Part shown: positions 20,257 to 29,283 of the stretch, one piece after another
How positions within the stretch are numbered: the first letter of the stretch is position 1
Layout: every line of letters starts with the position of its first letter
Assembly (NCBI GenBank): GCA_048938855.1
Contig: JBHLLT010000011.1
Location: forward strand, 42,400-106,399
Length of the DNA: 64,000 bases
DNA from: Promethearchaeota archaeon
GTDB lineage: Archaea > Asgardarchaeota > Lokiarchaeia > Sigyniarchaeales > SOKP01
Reading direction: 5' to 3'
Notes under the pieces: generated by a model
Database searches by the model: none
What the model was told of the DNA's origin: nothing
The model's input: only the letters and a program-made list of their open reading frames with translations
Translations under genes and position numbers: made by a program

Positions 20257-21213
20257 ATGAGTGAATCAAAATATTTTAAAAAAATACTATTCTGTGGTTT
20301 GGAGAGTGGTGGAAAGACATCAATTTTATTGTTATTAGATAAAAAATTTAGTTTATTAGCCTCAGTTAAACCAACTATAAAAGCTAAAAGAACCTTTCAT
20401 ACGAATTCATTATTAGGCACCACTATTGTTCGTTGGGATTTAGGTGGCCAAAAAGGTTATAGGAAAGTATATTTGGGTGATAAAAGTAAGTACTTTACTG
20501 AAATGCAATCAATATTTTATGTTATAGATATCCAAGCACCAAAAAAATTTGAGGAAGCTCTAACTTTCCTTAAGGATATTATAAATATCACTTCAGAATC
20601 GCGTCCTGAGAACTTTCAACTCTTAATTCTCCTCCATAAGTGCGATCCAGATATTAAAAATAAGAAAAATATCATTATTAACATCAAATTCTTAGAAAAT
20701 GAAATTAAATCTATTTTAAAAGAAGTGAAATATTCTATTTTAAAAACTTCTATTTATGATGAACCAAGTTTATTAAAGGCTTTTTCTGATGGTGTTTTTT
20801 ATGCTACTCATCGATCAAAGATGTTTCAAACCTTATTAAAAGATTATATGGGCAAAACTTACAATAGCTCTACACTTTTATTAGATCAGAATTGTTTTAT
20901 AATCGCTAGTAGAAGTACTTATCAAGCTTATCAAGAAATTTGCGAAGCGATAGCCCCGAGATTAACTCAAGCTTTGGAAAAATTAGAAGAATGGGATATT
21001 AACACAATTGACATTGTAACAAATATTGAATTTCCTGAAAAACAGTCAGAGTCTCAAAAAGAAGGGATTATTTTCTTAAGAAAACTAGATATTGAAGATA
21101 CTAGACTATATCTAGTTGCACTGTGTTTGAATAAGAATGTGAAGATCAAATCCTATGAATATTTACCGTTATTGGCAGAAAATTTAAAGAATTTATTAGA
21201 GGCATTTGATTAA
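20257..21213 (+). CDS. Rag/Gtr-like small GTPase with C-terminal roadblock/longin-like domain
   Basis: GLESGGKTS, PT, WDLGGQ, HKCD (Rag-type HKxD), TSIYDEPSLLKAFS; about 120-aa C-terminal domain. Confidence 0.82.
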   Translation: MSESKYFKKILFCGLESGGKTSILLLLDKKFSLLASVKPTIKAKRTFHTNSLLGTTIVRWDLGGQKGYRKVYLGDKSKYFTEMQSIFYVIDIQAPKKFEEALTFLKDIINITSESRPENFQLLILLHKCDPDIKNKKNIIINIKFLENEIKSILKEVKYSILKTSIYDEPSLLKAFSDGVFYATHRSKMFQTLLKDYMGKTYNSSTLLLDQNCFIIASRSTYQAYQEICEAIAPRLTQALEKLEEWDINTIDIVTNIEFPEKQSESQKEGIIFLRKLDIEDTRLYLVALCLNKNVKIKSYEYLPLLAENLKNLLEAFD

Positions 21214-21428: not shown

Positions 21429-22625
21429 ATGATGATTATAAAATCTAATGTAAATAAAAATTATATAGGTCCTAGAGCCCTATTTGACCCAAATTACATT
21501 CCCCCAAATTTATTATACAGAAAAAAAGAGGAGACTTCTCTATTTTCAATTTTGAAAGATTCAATATCTGATGAGTTTTGTCTTAACATCATTTATCATG
21601 GAATGAATGGAATTGGAAAAAAAGTAATAGTAAATAAAGTAGTGAACGATCTTTCAGTAAAAAATAAAGAAAATTTAAAAATTAATAAAATCAGCGTAGA
21701 TTGTAAGGAAAAAGAAATTGGAGAATTAATTTTTTCATTACTAAATGAATTAAATAGCTTTTCTAATTTCAATTTTGATTATCAAAGCATCTTAAATTCA
21801 AATCTTTCTCACTTATGGAATACATTTAAATTTGTATGTAATAAAACAGATTCCCACTTGTTCTTTATTTTTAATAATATTGAATATTTGGAACCTGAAA
21901 TATTTCAAAAATTCATGCAATTTAGTAAAGAAACAAATGTCACCTTAATCTCAACTGTAAATAAGTTTTTAAAACCAGGTACAATGGATTTACTATCTGA
22001 TTTTGATTTTAAGCACAAATTAGAATTTTTTACTTATAATGAGCTGTATTCTATTCTTAATCAAAGAGTTCTATTAAGTTTTTCACATGAAATTGATAAG
22101 AATTTAATAAGATATATAACTGATTTAATTTGTGAAGAATATATCCCTGTTCCAGGAAAAGGAATTGAAATTCTTCGAGATATATACCCAATCTTGAAAA
22201 ATGATAAGGGCTCCTGCAATTTTGACCTTCTAGAAATTTGCCAGAATGAGTTTGATATATTTCAAATTTCTGACGAATTTAACATGATAAATTATCTTTC
22301 AGAAGAAGATATATTAACTATTCTATTTTTAGATAATCTCTCAAACTTATTTCTAAAAAAAATGAAATATTATGTATCGTTTAATGAATTATTGGAGTGT
22401 TATGAGCTTTCTTGTGAATATTTAGAATATACAAAAAATAATAATGAGTTTTATAGTCTCATTGAAGAAATGTTAAATATAGGAATCATTAGACTCTCAA
22501 AAAGAACTCAGGACAAAATAAATCCTAATAAACTTTTAAATAATTTAGATAACAATTCTTTCTTTACAATAGTACATCCTAAAGAAATAAAAGTGATAAT
22601 TGATACTATTTTTAACCAGCTATAA
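21429..22625 (+). CDS. Divergent Orc1/Cdc6-like protein, probably ATPase-inactive
   Basis: ALFDPNYIPPNLLYRKKE N-terminus, degenerate Walker A GMNGIGKK, Walker B position FFIFNNIE, FTYNELYSILNQR, C-terminal wH-like region. Confidence 0.75.
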   Translation: MMIIKSNVNKNYIGPRALFDPNYIPPNLLYRKKEETSLFSILKDSISDEFCLNIIYHGMNGIGKKVIVNKVVNDLSVKNKENLKINKISVDCKEKEIGELIFSLLNELNSFSNFNFDYQSILNSNLSHLWNTFKFVCNKTDSHLFFIFNNIEYLEPEIFQKFMQFSKETNVTLISTVNKFLKPGTMDLLSDFDFKHKLEFFTYNELYSILNQRVLLSFSHEIDKNLIRYITDLICEEYIPVPGKGIEILRDIYPILKNDKGSCNFDLLEICQNEFDIFQISDEFNMINYLSEEDILTILFLDNLSNLFLKKMKYYVSFNELLECYELSCEYLEYTKNNNEFYSLIEEMLNIGIIRLSKRTQDKINPNKLLNNLDNNSFFTIVHPKEIKVIIDTIFNQL

Positions 22626-22799: not shown

Positions 22800-25700
22800 T
22801 TGACTTATATTAAGAAAATTTCCATGAGTGGTTTTAAAAGCTTTGGTGATAGAACTGTAACCATTCGTCTTTCTAGTGGATTTACATGTATTGTAGGACC
22901 AAATGGAGCAGGAAAGTCCAATATTATTGATGCTCTTTGTTTTGCGTTAGGAAGGTTAAGCAAAAAAACCATGAGAGCAAAAAGTCTTGAAGATCTCATT
23001 TTCGCTGGAGCAAGAGGAAAAAACCCTTCACAAAGAGCATCTGTAACCCTTTATTTCGACAATTCAGAAAATGTATTTCCAGGTGGAACTAATGATTTCG
23101 AAATTACACGGACTATAAAGATTGGAGGAGGGGGAGGTTATAAAATGAATGGAAAAAAAGCTACAAGACAACAAATCCTTAATGCTCTAGCAGCAGCTAA
23201 TGTTGATCCTGATGGAAGTAATCAATTTGTTCTTCAAGGAAAAATTGTAGAATTAACACATATGAATGCAGAAGAACGTAGAAAATTTATAGAAGAACTT
23301 ATTGGTCTTCAAAAATATGATGAAATGAAAGATTCTACACTAAAAGAATTGGAAAAAGCAGAAAGAGATTTAGGACAATTTGAAGCTATTTTTAAGGAAG
23401 TTTCAGCTCAATTGAAAAAAGTTGAAAAAGAAAAAAATGACGCGCTAGCATGGAAAGAATTAGATGAAAAAATTAACTTCTTAAATTCTCAGTTAATAGC
23501 GTTAAAAATTTCAAAACTTCGACAAGAAGAAGAAGAACTAGAAAATAAGATCGAAATTTCCTTGAAAATTATTGAAGAATTGCAAGAAAAAATCAATAGG
23601 CAGGAAGATGTCTTAAAACAAGAATCTCTTGTAATGGATAATATACAAAAAACAATTATAGAGAAAGAAAAAGAAAGAGAGGAGATCGCTGAAAATATAA
23701 CTCAAGTAAAAACCCAAATTTCATCAAGCCAGACTACCCTCAATTTAGCTCAAAAATCTATTGAGAAATTATTTAATGAAATTGCAAGTTTAGAGAGTAA
23801 ACAAATGAAACTTGAAGAAGGGCAGACTTTTGACTCATTAATAGAAGATATCTCTAACGAGATATTAGATTATGAGACCCAAATCGAAGACACTAAAGCT
23901 GAAATTGAAAAAAGACAACAAACCCAGGCTGAATTAGATCTTCAAATAAAAACTACAGAAGATGAGAATTCTCTTTATAAAGCAGAAATTTCCAAGATAC
24001 AGCAAAGTATTTCATCTAATAATGCTCAAATTAAAATGCTCAGAGGAACTATTAAAAAGAATGAAGAAAAGAAGCAAAAATTGGAAACTGAGCTAGAAAA
24101 ACTGAAAAAGGATGCCGAAAGCATAGATGAAGCTATAGAAGAGACAAAAAAGGCAGAATCAGAAATTAGAAAACGAATAGATGAATTAAATGCTAAAATC
24201 TCAAAAGAAAATCAAAGTCAAAAAGAATTAGAAAGCAATATTAATAATCTTCAAGCAGAAAAAAATCAAATAAATTCAAAATTAATAGAATTCCAAGCAA
24301 CATTATCATCCTTAAACACAGAAATCACAATGAATAAACAAAGTATACTGGAATTAAATCAAAAAAAAGATGCTATCAAGAAGAAGATAACTGAATTAAG
24401 TAAAGGTAGAGACGCTGAAAACGCTGTAAAAGAATTATTGAAAGAAAACGACATACTTAATAAAGAATTAAACCAATTAAAATTGAATTTGAAAGAACAA
24501 AATTCAATATATAGGAAAAATGAACAAGATCTTGAATTATTGAATATGAAGAAATATTCATTCGAGTCTGAAATCAATGATAACAAAGCAAAAATAGACA
24601 CTCTTAATACAGAACTAAAGATACTTTCAAAAGAAAAAACTAATTTAGATAGAGAAAATAATGATTTAGAATTAAAGGTAAATTCTTTAGAGAAAAATCT
24701 TACTACTACTAGAAAAGAATCTGAAAAGTTTAATATCAAAAAAGAAAACATTCAGAGACGACTAGAGGAGCTTTCACAAGAAAGAGAAAATCTTTCTTTA
24801 AAAATTGAATCCTCCGAAGAGGAATATGAGAAAAATACAAAAGATATAACGGGAATACTTCAGATTTTAAATATGCTTACTCAAAATATTAATATTTCAG
24901 TCGAGTCAATAAAAGCAAATATCCAACAATCAAATGCAGATGCAATTGAATCATCTGCAGAAGATTTTAAAAAATTTATTCTGGACATACTTGATATTAT
25001 GAAAACTGTAGAAAATATTGGTACAGATGAAGAAAAACATGCTGAAATGACTGAAATGATTAACTCTATAATGCAAACTTTAGAATTATTTACTGATAAT
25101 GCTGATACTACAATTGATCAATTAATTGAAAAAGTAAAAGAATCTGCAGATGTTGAAATCCAATCTTCGACAAATACCTTTGATAATTTTGTTCAAGATT
25201 TAATGGAAATTCTTGAAAATGTGTATCTTTCTTTAAGAAAATTAACATTGTCAAAGAGTCAAGAATTATATAAACAACTGGAAGAGATCTCAGCTAGTAT
25301 TAAATCCCAAACTGGTGATTACAATAAAAATGAACAACTGTTAACTGAAACTAGAATCCAAGAAAAACATTTTTCAGAAAATCTTTCTTCGTATAATAAA
25401 AGGCTTGAAGAAATTGGAAAAAGAAATTCTGAATTAAACCAAAGAATCAAAAATTCAGAAATTGAAATAAAAGAAAGAAGTGAAAATATAGATAAAAGGC
25501 AGATAGAATTCAATAACATAGATTCTGAAATCAGTAAGTTGAAAGAACTTAAAGATACATACTGGGAAAACATATCTAAAATCCAAGATGAGATTGACGG
25601 AAAACAAAGTGATTTAGAAATCTTAAGAGAAAAGCTTCAGGAATTACACGGAATTCAAAATTTATTTGATAATATTGTAGAAATTGATGATAGTATAGAA

Positions 25701-27251
25701 AAATTAAATAATCTCATTGAAGAAAAGAAAAACATAATAATTAATACAGAAGAAAGCATTAAAAATAATCAAGAAGAACAAGATTCCTTACAGAACAAGA
25801 TAAATGAGTTAGTTATTCGAAAAGAAAAATTTTGGGAAGTAACTGAAAATTTAAGAAAAGAGATAGATGCTGAAAATAAAACCCTTGAAGATACTTTAGA
25901 CCGTTTAAGAGCACTTCAAAATGTAATGAGGATTATTAACTCTATTGAAGATATTAAAAAAGAGAATATTGATGCTAATGATAGAATAAAAGTATGTCAA
26001 GATGATATTCAAGGATTAAACACCCAAGTTGAAGAAATCCAAATAAAAGTAGATCAAAAGCAACAAGTTATAAATGAATTAAGAGATAATAAGTCTCAAG
26101 AGCTAGAATCTCAAAAAACAGCTCAGAAAAAATTAAATAAGTTGAATAAAGATTTACAAAAATCTCAAGGTAAACTCAATGAGCTAAATAAAAATAAGGA
26201 AAGAGAACAGAAGATAATAGGGCTTAATCAAGATATAGATGATACGAAAAAACAAGTTGAATCCATAACAAAAGATTTAACAATCCTGAAAGAGGATTTA
26301 GATAATCAGAATCTGAAGAAGGATGAAAAACAAAAAGAGATTGATAAATTTATACAAGAAAAGGATGAATCATGGAAAAAACAAAAACAGTATCAAAGAA
26401 TTATAACAGATTTAAAATCTGATTTATCAATGGAAAATTCTAAAATAAATAATTATGAATCCAAAAAATTAATGTGTACTGACCAAATAGAAACCTTATT
26501 TCAACGATCTAAAGAATATGGCTCATTACCTCCAGTGACAGATGATCTTGCTGAAGCGGAATTACAATCTGATATTGTAGAACTATCACAAAAGAAAAAA
26601 ACTCTTGAACCGGTAAATTTAAAGGCAATTCAACAATATGACACCGTCAAAGAAAGATTTGATGAGATAGATATGAGAAGGCAAACAATTCAAAGAGAAA
26701 GAAAATCGATCCTAGACGCAATTGATAAAATTGAGTTAGAAAAGACTCGAACTTTTATGAAAGCTTATCATGAAATTAATCGGGAATTTTCAAGAATATT
26801 TCAGAAATTATCTCCAGGTGGTTCAGCTAAAATGATCTTAGATAGACCTGATAAACCGTTTGAAGGAGGTATTTCTATTGAAGCAAGACCAAGAGGTAAG
26901 AAAATTAGTTCTCTAGAAATTTTAAGTGGGGGAGAAAAAACTTTAGTTGCGTTATCTTTCATATTTGCGGTTCAAGAATTTTATCCTGCTCCTTTTTACG
27001 TAATGGATGAGATTGATGCAGCTTTGGATGGTCCAAATGTTCACCGTGTTTCAATGGTCATAAAAGAGTTTGCTTCTCAAGCCCAATTTATGGTTATATC
27101 TCATAGAGAAGAAAATATTGTAAACGCAGATAGAATTTACGGTGTTTCAATGCAACAAAGTGGAATAACTGATATTTTTAGTGTTGATTTAGAAGAGGAA
27201 GCGAAGCGCCTTCTTGAACTAGAAGATGTCGAGCCAACGATTACAGAATAA
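22800..27251 (+). CDS. smc: SMC chromosome segregation ATPase, elongated, with non-canonical hinge
   Basis: GFKSF, GPNGAGKSN, Q-loop VLQG, PVNLKAI, LSGGEKT, VMDEIDAALD, ISH; long coiled coils; followed by scpA/scpB. Confidence 0.95.
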   Translation: MTYIKKISMSGFKSFGDRTVTIRLSSGFTCIVGPNGAGKSNIIDALCFALGRLSKKTMRAKSLEDLIFAGARGKNPSQRASVTLYFDNSENVFPGGTNDFEITRTIKIGGGGGYKMNGKKATRQQILNALAAANVDPDGSNQFVLQGKIVELTHMNAEERRKFIEELIGLQKYDEMKDSTLKELEKAERDLGQFEAIFKEVSAQLKKVEKEKNDALAWKELDEKINFLNSQLIALKISKLRQEEEELENKIEISLKIIEELQEKINRQEDVLKQESLVMDNIQKTIIEKEKEREEIAENITQVKTQISSSQTTLNLAQKSIEKLFNEIASLESKQMKLEEGQTFDSLIEDISNEILDYETQIEDTKAEIEKRQQTQAELDLQIKTTEDENSLYKAEISKIQQSISSNNAQIKMLRGTIKKNEEKKQKLETELEKLKKDAESIDEAIEETKKAESEIRKRIDELNAKISKENQSQKELESNINNLQAEKNQINSKLIEFQATLSSLNTEITMNKQSILELNQKKDAIKKKITELSKGRDAENAVKELLKENDILNKELNQLKLNLKEQNSIYRKNEQDLELLNMKKYSFESEINDNKAKIDTLNTELKILSKEKTNLDRENNDLELKVNSLEKNLTTTRKESEKFNIKKENIQRRLEELSQERENLSLKIESSEEEYEKNTKDITGILQILNMLTQNINISVESIKANIQQSNADAIESSAEDFKKFILDILDIMKTVENIGTDEEKHAEMTEMINSIMQTLELFTDNADTTIDQLIEKVKESADVEIQSSTNTFDNFVQDLMEILENVYLSLRKLTLSKSQELYKQLEEISASIKSQTGDYNKNEQLLTETRIQEKHFSENLSSYNKRLEEIGKRNSELNQRIKNSEIEIKERSENIDKRQIEFNNIDSEISKLKELKDTYWENISKIQDEIDGKQSDLEILREKLQELHGIQNLFDNIVEIDDSIEKLNNLIEEKKNIIINTEESIKNNQEEQDSLQNKINELVIRKEKFWEVTENLRKEIDAENKTLEDTLDRLRALQNVMRIINSIEDIKKENIDANDRIKVCQDDIQGLNTQVEEIQIKVDQKQQVINELRDNKSQELESQKTAQKKLNKLNKDLQKSQGKLNELNKNKEREQKIIGLNQDIDDTKKQVESITKDLTILKEDLDNQNLKKDEKQKEIDKFIQEKDESWKKQKQYQRIITDLKSDLSMENSKINNYESKKLMCTDQIETLFQRSKEYGSLPPVTDDLAEAELQSDIVELSQKKKTLEPVNLKAIQQYDTVKERFDEIDMRRQTIQRERKSILDAIDKIELEKTRTFMKAYHEINREFSRIFQKLSPGGSAKMILDRPDKPFEGGISIEARPRGKKISSLEILSGGEKTLVALSFIFAVQEFYPAPFYVMDEIDAALDGPNVHRVSMVIKEFASQAQFMVISHREENIVNADRIYGVSMQQSGITDIFSVDLEEEAKRLLELEDVEPTITE

Positions 27252-27277
27252 TTAATTTACATATATGGTGATAAACA

Positions 27278-28279
27278 ATTTCAGAAAATGATCAAAATTC
27301 TACTATAAAATATAACTTTAGTGAGTGGACAGTTAAAGATCTTAGAGAATTTGCTTCAAAAAATAATATAAAAATACCTTCTAAAGCCAAGAAAAAAGAA
27401 ATAATTGATTTCCTTCAAGAGGTTGTATCACATCCAGAATTTACAGATAGATCACAAGATATTGAAGAAGTGGAGGAAGAACTAATTGCTGGATTTGAAG
27501 ATGAAGAAGATCTTGCCTTATTGAGGAAAGAAAAGCTCGAACTAAAATTCTGGCAAAAGCCACCTTTTTCAAGCTTATTAGATTCGGAAATTGCAAAAGA
27601 ATCAGAAATTGCGTTTTATGATTTGGCAAAATTAGTTGATGAATTCTTCGATCAGATGTTACATGAAGAATTGATAAATTATAAAATCTCGGGTATAGCT
27701 CTTAAAACTTCAGCAGTATTGCATCATTATAAAATTTCAAGCATTATAAGGGAAGAGGAACAAATTCAGAAAAGAGAAGAACTAGAGCGTTTAAGACAAG
27801 CGCATGGTAGAACCATACCTAAAGCATTACCTCAACCAATTCAACCTAAAATGCAAATAGCCACCAAAGATGAATTATTTGATGCGATGAGATCTGCTAT
27901 TATAGAAGTAATGCAGAATAAAGAAAAATTAAGAAGAAGACGGATGAGAAAGGAGGAAATGAATCAACAAAGAATTCAAATGAAATCTAAAGCGCAACTT
28001 CCTAAAGAACTTCTTAAACATATAAGTGGAAGAGAACAAACAGTGGAAGAATTACATGAATCATGGTATAACCGAATTAAAGCTACGATTAATCTTAATA
28101 ATAAAGAAGCTTCTTTTTATGAATTGGCTGAGATTATTAAGAATGAAGAAAAAAGTGATATTGGAAGGAAATTTGCTTTTGTTCGTATGTTTCTAGCATT
28201 AATGTTCTTATCAACAGGTAATAAATTAAATTTATCTCAAGATGAAGATTTTCAAGATTTTAGTGTTAATATTAGATAA
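27278..28279 (+). CDS. scpA: ScpA kleisin with N-terminal HeH/SAP-like domain, probable ATT start
   Basis: YDLAKLVDEF...NYKISGIALKTSAVL N-kleisin; FVRMFLALMFL...L.QDEDFQD C-wH; frame open from ATT 27278 after GGTGA. Confidence 0.85.
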   Translation: MSENDQNSTIKYNFSEWTVKDLREFASKNNIKIPSKAKKKEIIDFLQEVVSHPEFTDRSQDIEEVEEELIAGFEDEEDLALLRKEKLELKFWQKPPFSSLLDSEIAKESEIAFYDLAKLVDEFFDQMLHEELINYKISGIALKTSAVLHHYKISSIIREEEQIQKREELERLRQAHGRTIPKALPQPIQPKMQIATKDELFDAMRSAIIEVMQNKEKLRRRRMRKEEMNQQRIQMKSKAQLPKELLKHISGREQTVEELHESWYNRIKATINLNNKEASFYELAEIIKNEEKSDIGRKFAFVRMFLALMFLSTGNKLNLSQDEDFQDFSVNIR

Positions 28280-28320: not shown

Positions 28321-29283
28321 TTGGAAGAAAATCATGAAAATAGCCTAGATGAAAAGCAAGAAGAAACCTCAGAAAATGAAGTTTTAGACGAAGAAGAAAA
28401 TGGAATACCCGAAGAGACAAGTTTAAGCTCTGAAAATTCCTTGATAGAAGATATTGAGGAAGTTGAGAATATTGAAAATACTAGTTCGATCGATATCACT
28501 TCAGAAAATGAAGTTTTAGACGAAGAAGAAAATGGAATACCCGAAGAGACAAGTTTAAGCTCTGAAAATTCCTTGATAGAAGATATTGAGGAAGTTGAGA
28601 ATATTGAAAATACTAATTCGATCGATATCACTTCAGAGACTGAAGTTTTAGACGAAAATTCATTAAAAAACCAACTAAGGATTTTCCATAGAAATTTAAT
28701 TGAAGCTTCTTTATACGCCGCTGGAAGTCCCCTTACAATAGAAGAAATATCAACGAAATTGGAATTACCTAAGAAAGAAGTGGAAGAATTAGTAAATGAA
28801 GTAGCTTTTGATTACCTAGAACGTAATACTTCTCTCGTTATTGCACAAATTGGAGATAGATTTCAAATGCAAATTAGACCAGAATATACAGAAAAAGTCT
28901 CTAAATTTGCCAAAGGTGGTGCCATCGCAGAAAGATATTTGAGAACTTTAACAGTTATTGCTCTAAAACAACCTGTATTAAAATCACTGATTATTAAATT
29001 GAGAGGTACTGGTGCCTATGAACATGTAAAATATCTCTTAGATAATGGATTTATAAATGCTGTAAAAAAGGGAAGATCTCATGAATTAACCACTACTGAT
29101 AAATATGCGGATATGTTTGGTTTACCAAAAGATAAGACTGAATTGAAACGGGCTATGATTACACAATTAGGAATTGAAGAAATTTCAACTAGTGAACCTC
29201 AAGAAGAAAATAACGTCCCTAATGATATAGAACCTTTAGATGAAACTGAATTTACACAAGAAAATGAAGAAGGAGAAGACTAA
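28321..29283 (+). CDS. scpB: ScpB (kite) with acidic repeat N-terminus
   Basis: IEASLYAAGSPL, LRTLTVIALKQPV, RG..AYEHVKYL, TTTDKYADMFGL. Confidence 0.93.
   Translation: MEENHENSLDEKQEETSENEVLDEEENGIPEETSLSSENSLIEDIEEVENIENTSSIDITSENEVLDEEENGIPEETSLSSENSLIEDIEEVENIENTNSIDITSETEVLDENSLKNQLRIFHRNLIEASLYAAGSPLTIEEISTKLELPKKEVEELVNEVAFDYLERNTSLVIAQIGDRFQMQIRPEYTEKVSKFAKGGAIAERYLRTLTVIALKQPVLKSLIIKLRGTGAYEHVKYLLDNGFINAVKKGRSHELTTTDKYADMFGLPKDKTELKRAMITQLGIEEISTSEPQEENNVPNDIEPLDETEFTQENEEGED
28369..28656 (+). repeat. 132-bp in-frame tandem duplication (2 copies plus a partial third) in scpB
   Basis: Units start at 28369, 28501, 28633; copies 1 and 2 differ at one base (AGT/AAT). Confidence 0.95.

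Follow-up and report, generated by a model that had tools for sequence, protein, structure and literature searches.

The stretch analysed here, referred to as the window, comprises 64,000 nucleotides of a Promethearchaeota archaeon (contig JBHLLT010000011.1, positions 42,400 to 106,399 of the forward strand; C45 in our contig numbering). It is AT-rich, with a GC content of 26–34%, and belongs to a genome of 3.95 Mb in 93 contigs with an estimated completeness of 97% and an estimated contamination of 7%. At positions 22800..27251 of its plus strand lies an smc gene with a TTG start, which encodes a long-armed SMC protein of 1483 amino acids (aa) that has no hinge. It is followed by a gene for a putative kleisin (27278..28279, +) and by scpB (28321..29283, +). 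The hinge is regarded as universal among SMC-kleisin complexes and as one of their defining features; it is a dimerisation site, a DNA-binding site and a proposed DNA gate. Homologues of the 1483-aa protein are named "AAA family ATPase" or "chromosome segregation protein SMC" in public databases, where the close ones are assigned to Promethearchaeota or Lokiarchaeia.

The head of the protein is canonical, as the first-pass annotation of the window had stated from its motifs. The N-terminal half (22800..23309, +; approximately aa 1–170) carries the Walker A motif GPNGAGKS (aa 33–40) and the Q-loop (aa 144–147), and the C-terminal half (26730..27248, +) carries the signature LSGGE (aa 1375–1379), the Walker B motif FYVMDEID (aa 1399–1406) and the H-loop (aa 1433–1436). 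Orthologues share 85–98% identity in the former, and close orthologues 87–100% in the latter. The Pfam family SMC_N (PF02463) matched with an E-value of 2.8e-38 over aa 3–1457. TIGR02168 scored 595.5 bits, above its cut-off of 567.35, and the archaeal-type TIGR02169 scored 623.9 bits, below its cut-off of 729.4, with the match split into five pieces. The protein has a split ABC ATPase head of the Smc-ScpAB type with all motifs present.

The absence of both an alpha/beta hinge and a Rad50-type CxxC hook, as claimed before, was confirmed. SMC_hinge (PF06470) gave no Pfam match even at E ≤ 1, neither for the whole protein nor for aa 560–940; a motif search of the 1483 residues found no Gly-rich hinge motif GX6GX3GG; and the AlphaFold2 (AF2) models of aa 560–940 and aa 648–852 contain no beta strand. 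CxxC does not occur anywhere in the protein, whose sole cysteines are at aa 30, 47, 1066 and 1226. Glycine and proline together amount to at most 2 per 40 aa throughout aa 181–1220, compared with 3–7 per 40 aa across the hinge of hinge-bearing relatives. A zinc hook or a hidden hinge elsewhere in the protein is ruled out by the Pfam search, the Gly/Pro composition and the motif search. When the whole genome was searched in six frames with PF06470, the only match was a different SMC of 1154 aa on contig C49. Identity with Rad50/SbcC was rejected given the missing CxxC and NCBIfam Rad50 scores of 47–95 bits, far under the cut-offs of 700–1087. Identity with ASRP/ClsN/Sph was rejected as well, since the ASRP model NF045487 scored 147.8 bits against a cut-off of 300 and no zinc hook is present.

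At the position of the hinge lies a module of two homologous halves (24819..25256, +; aa 674–819). The interval highlighted originally, 24843–25260, corresponds to aa 682–820 of the open reading frame (ORF); the unit of the repeat corresponds best to a helix-turn-helix hairpin (aa 674–741 and 745–815) and starts about 8 residues upstream of the start given there. Repeat 1 (24819..25022, +) consists of helix H1 (aa 674–709), the conserved turn QSN (aa 710–712) and helix H2 (aa 713–741), and repeat 2 (25032..25244, +) of H3 (aa 745–780), the conserved turn ESA (aa 781–783) and H4 (aa 784–815), which leads into the C-terminal arm; both were delimited from the AF2 model and their homology to each other. 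The loop between them (25023..25031, +) comprises G742-T-D744 and continues into EEKH. It coincides with a break in the AF2 helices at aa 742–744, where the predicted local distance difference test (pLDDT) is lowest, and its length varies in the alignment of orthologues. The motif GTDEEKH (G742 to H748) indeed sits at the midpoint of the protein (1483/2 = 741.5), as the first-pass annotation had noted.

The homology of the two halves is evident from sequence comparison. BLASTP aligned aa 674–737 with aa 745–808 without gaps at an offset of 71 residues (27% identity, E 7e-8), and profile-profile comparison of the repeats with hhalign gave a probability of 98% with E-values of 6.6e-14 and 2.5e-13 in two alignments, whereas the repeat profiles compared with 21 arm windows as controls did not exceed a probability of 3.7% (E ≥ 0.011). 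Together with the lack of strands in the AF2 models, this bears out the description of an all-helical apex built of two repeats. The direct repeat with a 213-nt period that had been proposed holds at the protein level, with its 71-aa offset, but not in the DNA, in which Tandem Repeats Finder reported no repeat of this period. The duplication is therefore old, and the two hairpins are the product of an ancient tandem duplication.

AF2 modelling of aa 560–940 from a 27-sequence alignment reached a mean pLDDT of 84 (above 90 in the arms and 51–77 in the apex) and predicted helices at aa 561–709, 713–741, 745–780, 784–815 and 820–939. The same helices were obtained for the apex alone (aa 648–852, 31 sequences, pLDDT 74), and confidence in the apex is moderate overall (pLDDT 51–78). 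In the model, H1 forms the last 36 residues of the N-terminal arm strand, H4 continues into the C-terminal strand, and H2 and H3 form a hairpin that is folded back along H1 and H4. With this topology, the distal tip would be made up of the two conserved turns, IQQSNA and KESAD, and the variable loop would be oriented towards the heads. With four antiparallel helices of similar length and short connections, the modelled apex is an up-down four-helix bundle, predicted to close within one molecule. When canonical SMCs are placed in a multiple alignment with the protein, their Pfam hinge coordinates correspond to aa 684–821; the predicted bundle therefore occupies exactly the place of the hinge.

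Structural comparison returned this arrangement in general terms. An exhaustive (wide) VIA-align search matched aa 674–821 to up-down four-helix bundles with Z-scores of 14–15.6 over 132–146 residues at a root mean square deviation of 2.4–3.2 Å, values that reflect a shared arrangement only and indicate neither kinship nor function. The predicted fold resembles the FAT domain and p130Cas, the vinculin tail, the talin rod and designed bundles, but at a sequence identity of 6–12%, and is generic. Foldseek with the 381-aa model found only generic coiled-coil hairpins (MukB elbow, dynein stalk, chemoreceptor, Rad50 coil), among them SMC and MukB arm fragments, and with the apex-only model nothing in the PDB at E ≤ 0.001. 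The shape search of the ESM Atlas with the apex-only model yielded generic bundles only, while the feature search yielded clusters without a name at ≤ 0.90 and fragment clusters of Rad50_zn_hook and SMC_hinge at a chance level of 0.76–0.78. The sequence of aa 500–1000 searched against the PDB gave only apolipoprotein and tropomyosin noise (E ≥ 0.12).

The apex is under stronger constraint than the coiled coil on either side. Across 112 near-full-length sequences of 1296–1497 aa, its identity exceeds that of both arm strands in nearly every close orthologue (e.g., 0.75 vs. 0.55–0.63). In total, 42–78% of the apex positions are at least 90% conserved, compared with 22–29% in arm segments, and H1 reaches the upper value of 78%. 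Conserved hydrophobic positions are about twice as dense in the apex (31–44%) as in the arms (17–22%). Asp729 and Asp800, which occupy equivalent positions of the two repeats, are invariant, distant members included.

Head and apex are connected by a long intramolecular antiparallel coiled-coil arm, as seen from AF2 helices with pLDDT values above 90, the paucity of glycine and proline at aa 181–1220 and the coiled-coil hairpins retrieved by Foldseek. The N-terminal strand (23310..24818, +; approximately aa 171–673) comprises about 500 residues, with runs free of Gly and Pro and a continuous helix predicted at aa 561–709, and the C-terminal strand (25257..26729, +; approximately aa 820–1310) about 490 residues, delimited by the helix at aa 820–939 and the Gly/Pro profile. 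Compared with canonical Asgard SMCs (1186–1206 aa), the N-terminal strand has about 131 extra residues (blocks at aa 334–353 and 487–597) and the C-terminal strand about 117 (blocks at aa 918–958, 1010–1052 and 1094–1126); coiled-coil alignments are imprecise, but these length differences are robust. An early-branching form of 1296–1299 aa, labelled Sigynarchaeota (P0141, L063), has the same apex and lacks matched blocks of 97 and 90 residues that flank it (aa 494–590 and 869–958 of the window's protein). This suggests that gain or loss of arm length proceeded by paired modules.

The first-pass annotation had placed scpA and scpB behind smc, and both genes were recovered. The kleisin (ScpA/Rec8-like) is listed as an ORF of 269 aa from GTG 27470 to 28279, and its frame is open from 27275. 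The 65 codons upstream of the listed GTG (27275–27469, +) encode a HeH/SAP-like motif, WTVKDLREFASKNNIKIPSKAKKKEII; this stretch is preceded by two stop codons and contains no ATG, GTG or TTG, and ATT 27278, located after GGTGA, is a possible start. Orthologous kleisins of 332–335 aa start with ATG, and 8 of 12 show Ish1, HeH or Rho_N matches (best E 1.1e-5, below the gathering score). The kleisin match to PF02616 is weak (E 0.018; 0.0018 plus Rad21_Rec8 for an orthologue). Searched against the PDB, the orthologue profile had as its six top matches ScpA/Scc1 N- or C-terminal domains in the correct order, with E-values of 0.09–0.6, and orthologues are annotated as kleisins by JGI. Weak as the individual scores are, the profile matches and synteny together identify the gene as the putative kleisin partner.

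ScpB is recognised by its profiles as the kite subunit, in a long form of 320 aa (28321..29283, +; PF04079 E 1.9e-32; TIGR00281 92.8 bits, cut-off 89.2), and is the sole ScpB of the genome. Its acidic N-terminal extension is encoded by a tandem repeat of 132 nt (28369–28656, +; 2.2 copies, 98% identity). Long-form ScpBs of 322–332 aa were also seen with the other hingeless SMCs examined and with a hinge-bearing sister SMC, and canonical Lokiarchaeales SMCs have a short ScpB of 196–197 aa. In all nine hingeless loci with DNA past the smc stop codon, the kleisin gene lies immediately downstream. A hidden Markov model of the window's kleisin detected a gene downstream of canonical SMCs in other Asgard classes (E 1e-7 to 1e-19), which is followed by ScpB. 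The hingeless operon therefore keeps the ancestral smc-kleisin-scpB order.

The apex region alone retrieved 171 proteins, almost all of them 1473–1487 aa long and 67–93% identical. Carriers make up 135 of 400 genomes of the phylum and 130 of 153 genomes of the window's order (Lokiarchaeales-type), distributed over the families f1 (113/134), f2 (1/1), f3 (14/14) and f4 (2/4), and include closed genomes, one of which is a single contig of 6,035,313 bp. Outside the order, the apex is essentially absent among the 400 genomes, with few exceptions. Two of these look mis-binned, one (G039) with 92% identity and short contigs, the other (G063) identical to P0132 and clustering with family f3; matches in G002 and G306 are borderline (E about 9e-4). 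A filter-free search of 1.84 billion representative proteins found the module in only 32 clusters, whose labelled or full-length members are Asgard-type SMCs or paralogues of the module, many others being unlabelled fragments. The hingeless architecture is a conserved, lineage-wide class and not a one-off.

A head-domain tree of 53 sequences and 390 columns, inferred with IQ-TREE under a site-heterogeneous model, united the hingeless SMCs in one clade (support 100/100) within the clade of condensin-type Asgard SMCs (97/95). The C49 protein of this genome belongs to the SMC5/6-like clade, which is set apart with 100/100 support, so that an SMC5/6-related identity of the hingeless SMC is ruled out. 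Its sister on a long branch (97/97) is an SMC of 1189 aa from a neighbouring order that still matches the hinge profile weakly; a long ScpB is encoded next to it and a Gtr1/RagA-like GTPase close by. The proposal of a possibly undescribed class of SMC-ScpAB complex holds for the conserved hingeless architecture, but the class is related to the canonical complex, nests within the condensin-type Asgard clade and has the ancestral gene order. Synteny favours the hingeless operon as the direct descendant of the ancestral gene; head-tree support for which of the Lokiarchaeales condensin-type SMCs descends directly from it is 38–72.

The question raised beforehand, whether the genome encodes another hinge-bearing SMC, is answered by the C49 protein (1154 aa; L010:3066-6530, −), which has a weak SMC_hinge match of 24–29 bits. 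Three ORFs of 416, 215 and 170 aa next to it have no Pfam match and may include its kleisin and kite. The genome-wide search found neither a strong-hinge SMC nor a third long SMC. In the window's genus, 36 of 38 genomes with a completeness of at least 90% show only the weak SMC5/6-type hinge match; the genus has lost the canonical hinge-bearing SMC and keeps only the SMC5/6-like paralogue besides the hingeless protein. With one ScpB and no strong-hinge SMC, the hingeless complex is the sole condensin-type complex of the genome. A canonical strong-hinge SMC of 1195–1207 aa coexists with the hingeless SMC in genera g2 and g10, in some members of g11 and in family f3, where both closed genomes examined encode it. 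This SMC is directly followed by a short ScpB with no kleisin between (e.g., G135 L024:6177-10393 and G149 L027:5373-9543). It is patchy across the order and lost in g1, g4–g6, g12 and g13, whereas the hingeless gene is constant. In genus g7 (G162:C72, G163:C96), a strong hinge match occurs in ORFs of only 238–247 aa that may represent a remnant or else a hinge on its own.

The module also occurs outside SMC proteins. Head-less proteins of about 1000–1180 aa (G135 L025:3997-7122, −; P0144, P0145, P0150, P0151), found in family f3 and in some metagenomic sequences, lack an SMC_N domain and carry two tandem copies of about 150 aa each (approximately aa 65–213 and 320–465), followed by a long coil and a Lys/Thr-rich, histone-H1-like tail. 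Two copies in proteins without a head show the module to be an autonomous unit, and the tails hint at a chromatin context. Neither the window's genome nor most of family f1 has such a paralogue.

The neighbours of smc are housekeeping or cellular genes, such as an aminoacyl-tRNA synthetase and a RagA-like GTPase, with no defence or mobile genes among them. The GTPase, of the Gtr1/RagA family, lies two genes upstream (20257–21213, +). A homologue is located beside the ScpB-SMC pair of the relative from the sister order (L069:4094-5272, −), and the linkage may be conserved. Directly upstream of smc, an ORF of 398 aa (21429–22625, +) has no Pfam match at E ≤ 0.001.

Compared with known systems, the locus shares with the canonical Smc-ScpAB of B. 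subtilis and Pyrococcus (TIGR02168/TIGR02169) the split ABC head, the antiparallel coiled coil, the adjacent kleisin and ScpB, and its nesting in the same clade. It differs by the lack of PF06470, replaced by a predicted all-alpha bundle, by arms of about 500 residues per strand instead of the 344 residues of the B. subtilis Smc arm (PMC5344682), by the N-terminal HeH-like motif of its kleisin and by the long acidic N-terminal extension of its ScpB. Rad50/SbcC and the archaeal ASRP/ClsN proteins likewise combine head, coiled coil and a non-hinge apex, for which ASRP/ClsN proteins use a zinc hook (PMC9389158); the hingeless SMC, in contrast, has no CxxC, and its partners are a kleisin and ScpB rather than Mre11. 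The closest experimental parallel is Smc(Zh), an engineered B. subtilis Smc with the hinge swapped for the zinc hook of P. furiosus Rad50, which supports normal growth (Burmann et al. 2017, PMC5344682). Both are SMC-kleisin complexes with an unrelated apex module in place of the hinge, but the Lokiarchaeal case, known from sequence, is natural, lineage-wide and a metal-free predicted helical bundle with no CxxC hook.

Marine Actinobacteria are reported to have a "hinge-less" SMC clade, which comes from ocean metagenomes and was described without partner genes (Sussfeld et al. 2025, PMC12153180). It resembles the Lokiarchaeal SMC in having SMC-type heads, a coiled coil and neither hinge nor zinc hook. 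It differs in being bacterial. The apex-only search of the 1.84 billion representatives, which covers the apex and not the heads, returned no bacterial-looking SMC. This may point to an independent loss or replacement of the hinge in the two lineages. Papers on the evolution of archaeal and Asgard SMCs describe two or three SMC complexes and do not mention a missing hinge, and among the papers searched there was no report of a hingeless SMC in Asgard archaea.

We hypothesize, as the probable reading, that the locus encodes the Asgard condensin-type Smc-kleisin-ScpB complex in its Lokiarchaeales form, with a helical bundle that replaced the hinge and serves as the head-distal dimer contact. In the ancestor of the order, the alpha/beta hinge would have been replaced by the all-alpha module of about 145 aa, whose two helix-turn-helix hairpins and the ends of the arm strands would together form an up-down four-helix bundle, and the arms would have grown to about 500 residues per strand. 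The bundle would take over the core job of the hinge and join the tips of two SMC arms constitutively, with two bundles packed most likely side by side or in a swapped arrangement, and the SMC2-kleisin-ScpB2 assembly would still close a DNA-entrapping ring or rod. A conserved surface of the bundle is probably also available to DNA or a partner. We base this proposal on the position and strong constraint of the apex, the retained kleisin and kite, the status of the complex as the only condensin-type one in the genus, and the B. subtilis precedent (PMC5344682).

Several points weigh against this proposal. Given that the pLDDT of the apex is only 51–77, an intermolecular bundle or another packing is possible. 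An intramolecular bundle of a duplicated hairpin could also be self-sufficient and leave no interface free for dimerisation. In several relatives, a hinge-bearing SMC exists beside the hingeless one, so the complex may be specialised rather than housekeeping. The kleisin assignment combines weak profile scores with synteny, and we infer, rather than observe, both dimerisation through the apex and a condensin-like function.

In the most serious alternative, which we nevertheless regard as unlikely, the bundle would act as a cap or as a docking site and not as a dimerisation domain. The SMCs would then pair only via ATP-engaged heads, kleisin and ScpB, or act single-armed, and the apex surface would bind DNA or a protein, for instance the lysine-rich two-module coiled-coil proteins or the HeH domain of the kleisin. 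The AF2 monomer model does close the bundle intramolecularly, the tandem copies in head-less proteins imply that the module folds independently of an SMC apex, and the very strong conservation of H1, polar residues included, would suit a partner-binding surface. However, every characterised SMC-kleisin complex as well as Rad50, RecN and MukB needs, to our knowledge, a second, head-distal dimer contact. Moreover, the apex stays conserved here and in most of f1, where the head-less paralogues are absent, and the complex is the only condensin-type one of the genus.

We give less credence still to the hingeless SMC being a specialised paralogue, e.g., for repair, defence or plasmid handling, with the chromosome organised by hinge-bearing SMCs. 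The coexistence of a strong-hinge SMC and its short ScpB in g2, g10, part of g11 and f3 would fit this explanation, as would the SMC5/6-like protein with its weak hinge match in the present genome. It is at odds with the constancy of the hingeless gene across an order in which the canonical hinge SMC is patchy, with the ancestral gene order that the hingeless operon keeps and that the Lokiarchaeales hinge SMC, having no adjacent kleisin, does not, and with the cellular rather than defence-related or mobile neighbourhood. An artefact of assembly or gene calling can practically be dismissed, as can decay of the gene: apart from the fragmentation and estimated contamination of the genome, no point in its favour was found, and misassembly, the concern named in the first-pass annotation, and a pseudogene are both excluded by intact ORFs of 1473–1505 aa, present both on independent contigs and on closed chromosomes of over 100 genomes, with heads conserved at 85–100% and no internal stops.

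A more far-reaching reading can be suggested, which we advance tentatively. The bundle may be a previously undescribed SMC dimerisation and DNA-gating module that fully replaces the hinge in the main chromosome-organising complex of a whole Asgard order, co-evolved with arms of 1.5 times the usual length, a HeH-bearing kleisin and an extended ScpB, and it may link the apex to the head-less, lysine-rich, two-copy chromatin proteins. If so, nature itself would have proved the hinge fold dispensable for SMC-kleisin function, and close relatives of eukaryotes would possess loop-extruding or DNA-entrapping machines of a new architecture.

The length of the B. subtilis Smc arm is constrained periodically (PMC5344682), and arm forms of about 500, 405 and 345 residues within one clade provide a natural test of such arm-length rules. 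A whole Asgard order appears to run a condensin-type complex without the hinge fold, in many genera as the only ScpB-type SMC complex. The hingeless SMC thus parallels, in nature, the zinc-hook swap engineered in B. subtilis and offers a way to ask which functions of the hinge are truly essential, and the complex adds a third, structurally distinct member to the Asgard repertoire that is discussed for the origin of eukaryotic SMC complexes.

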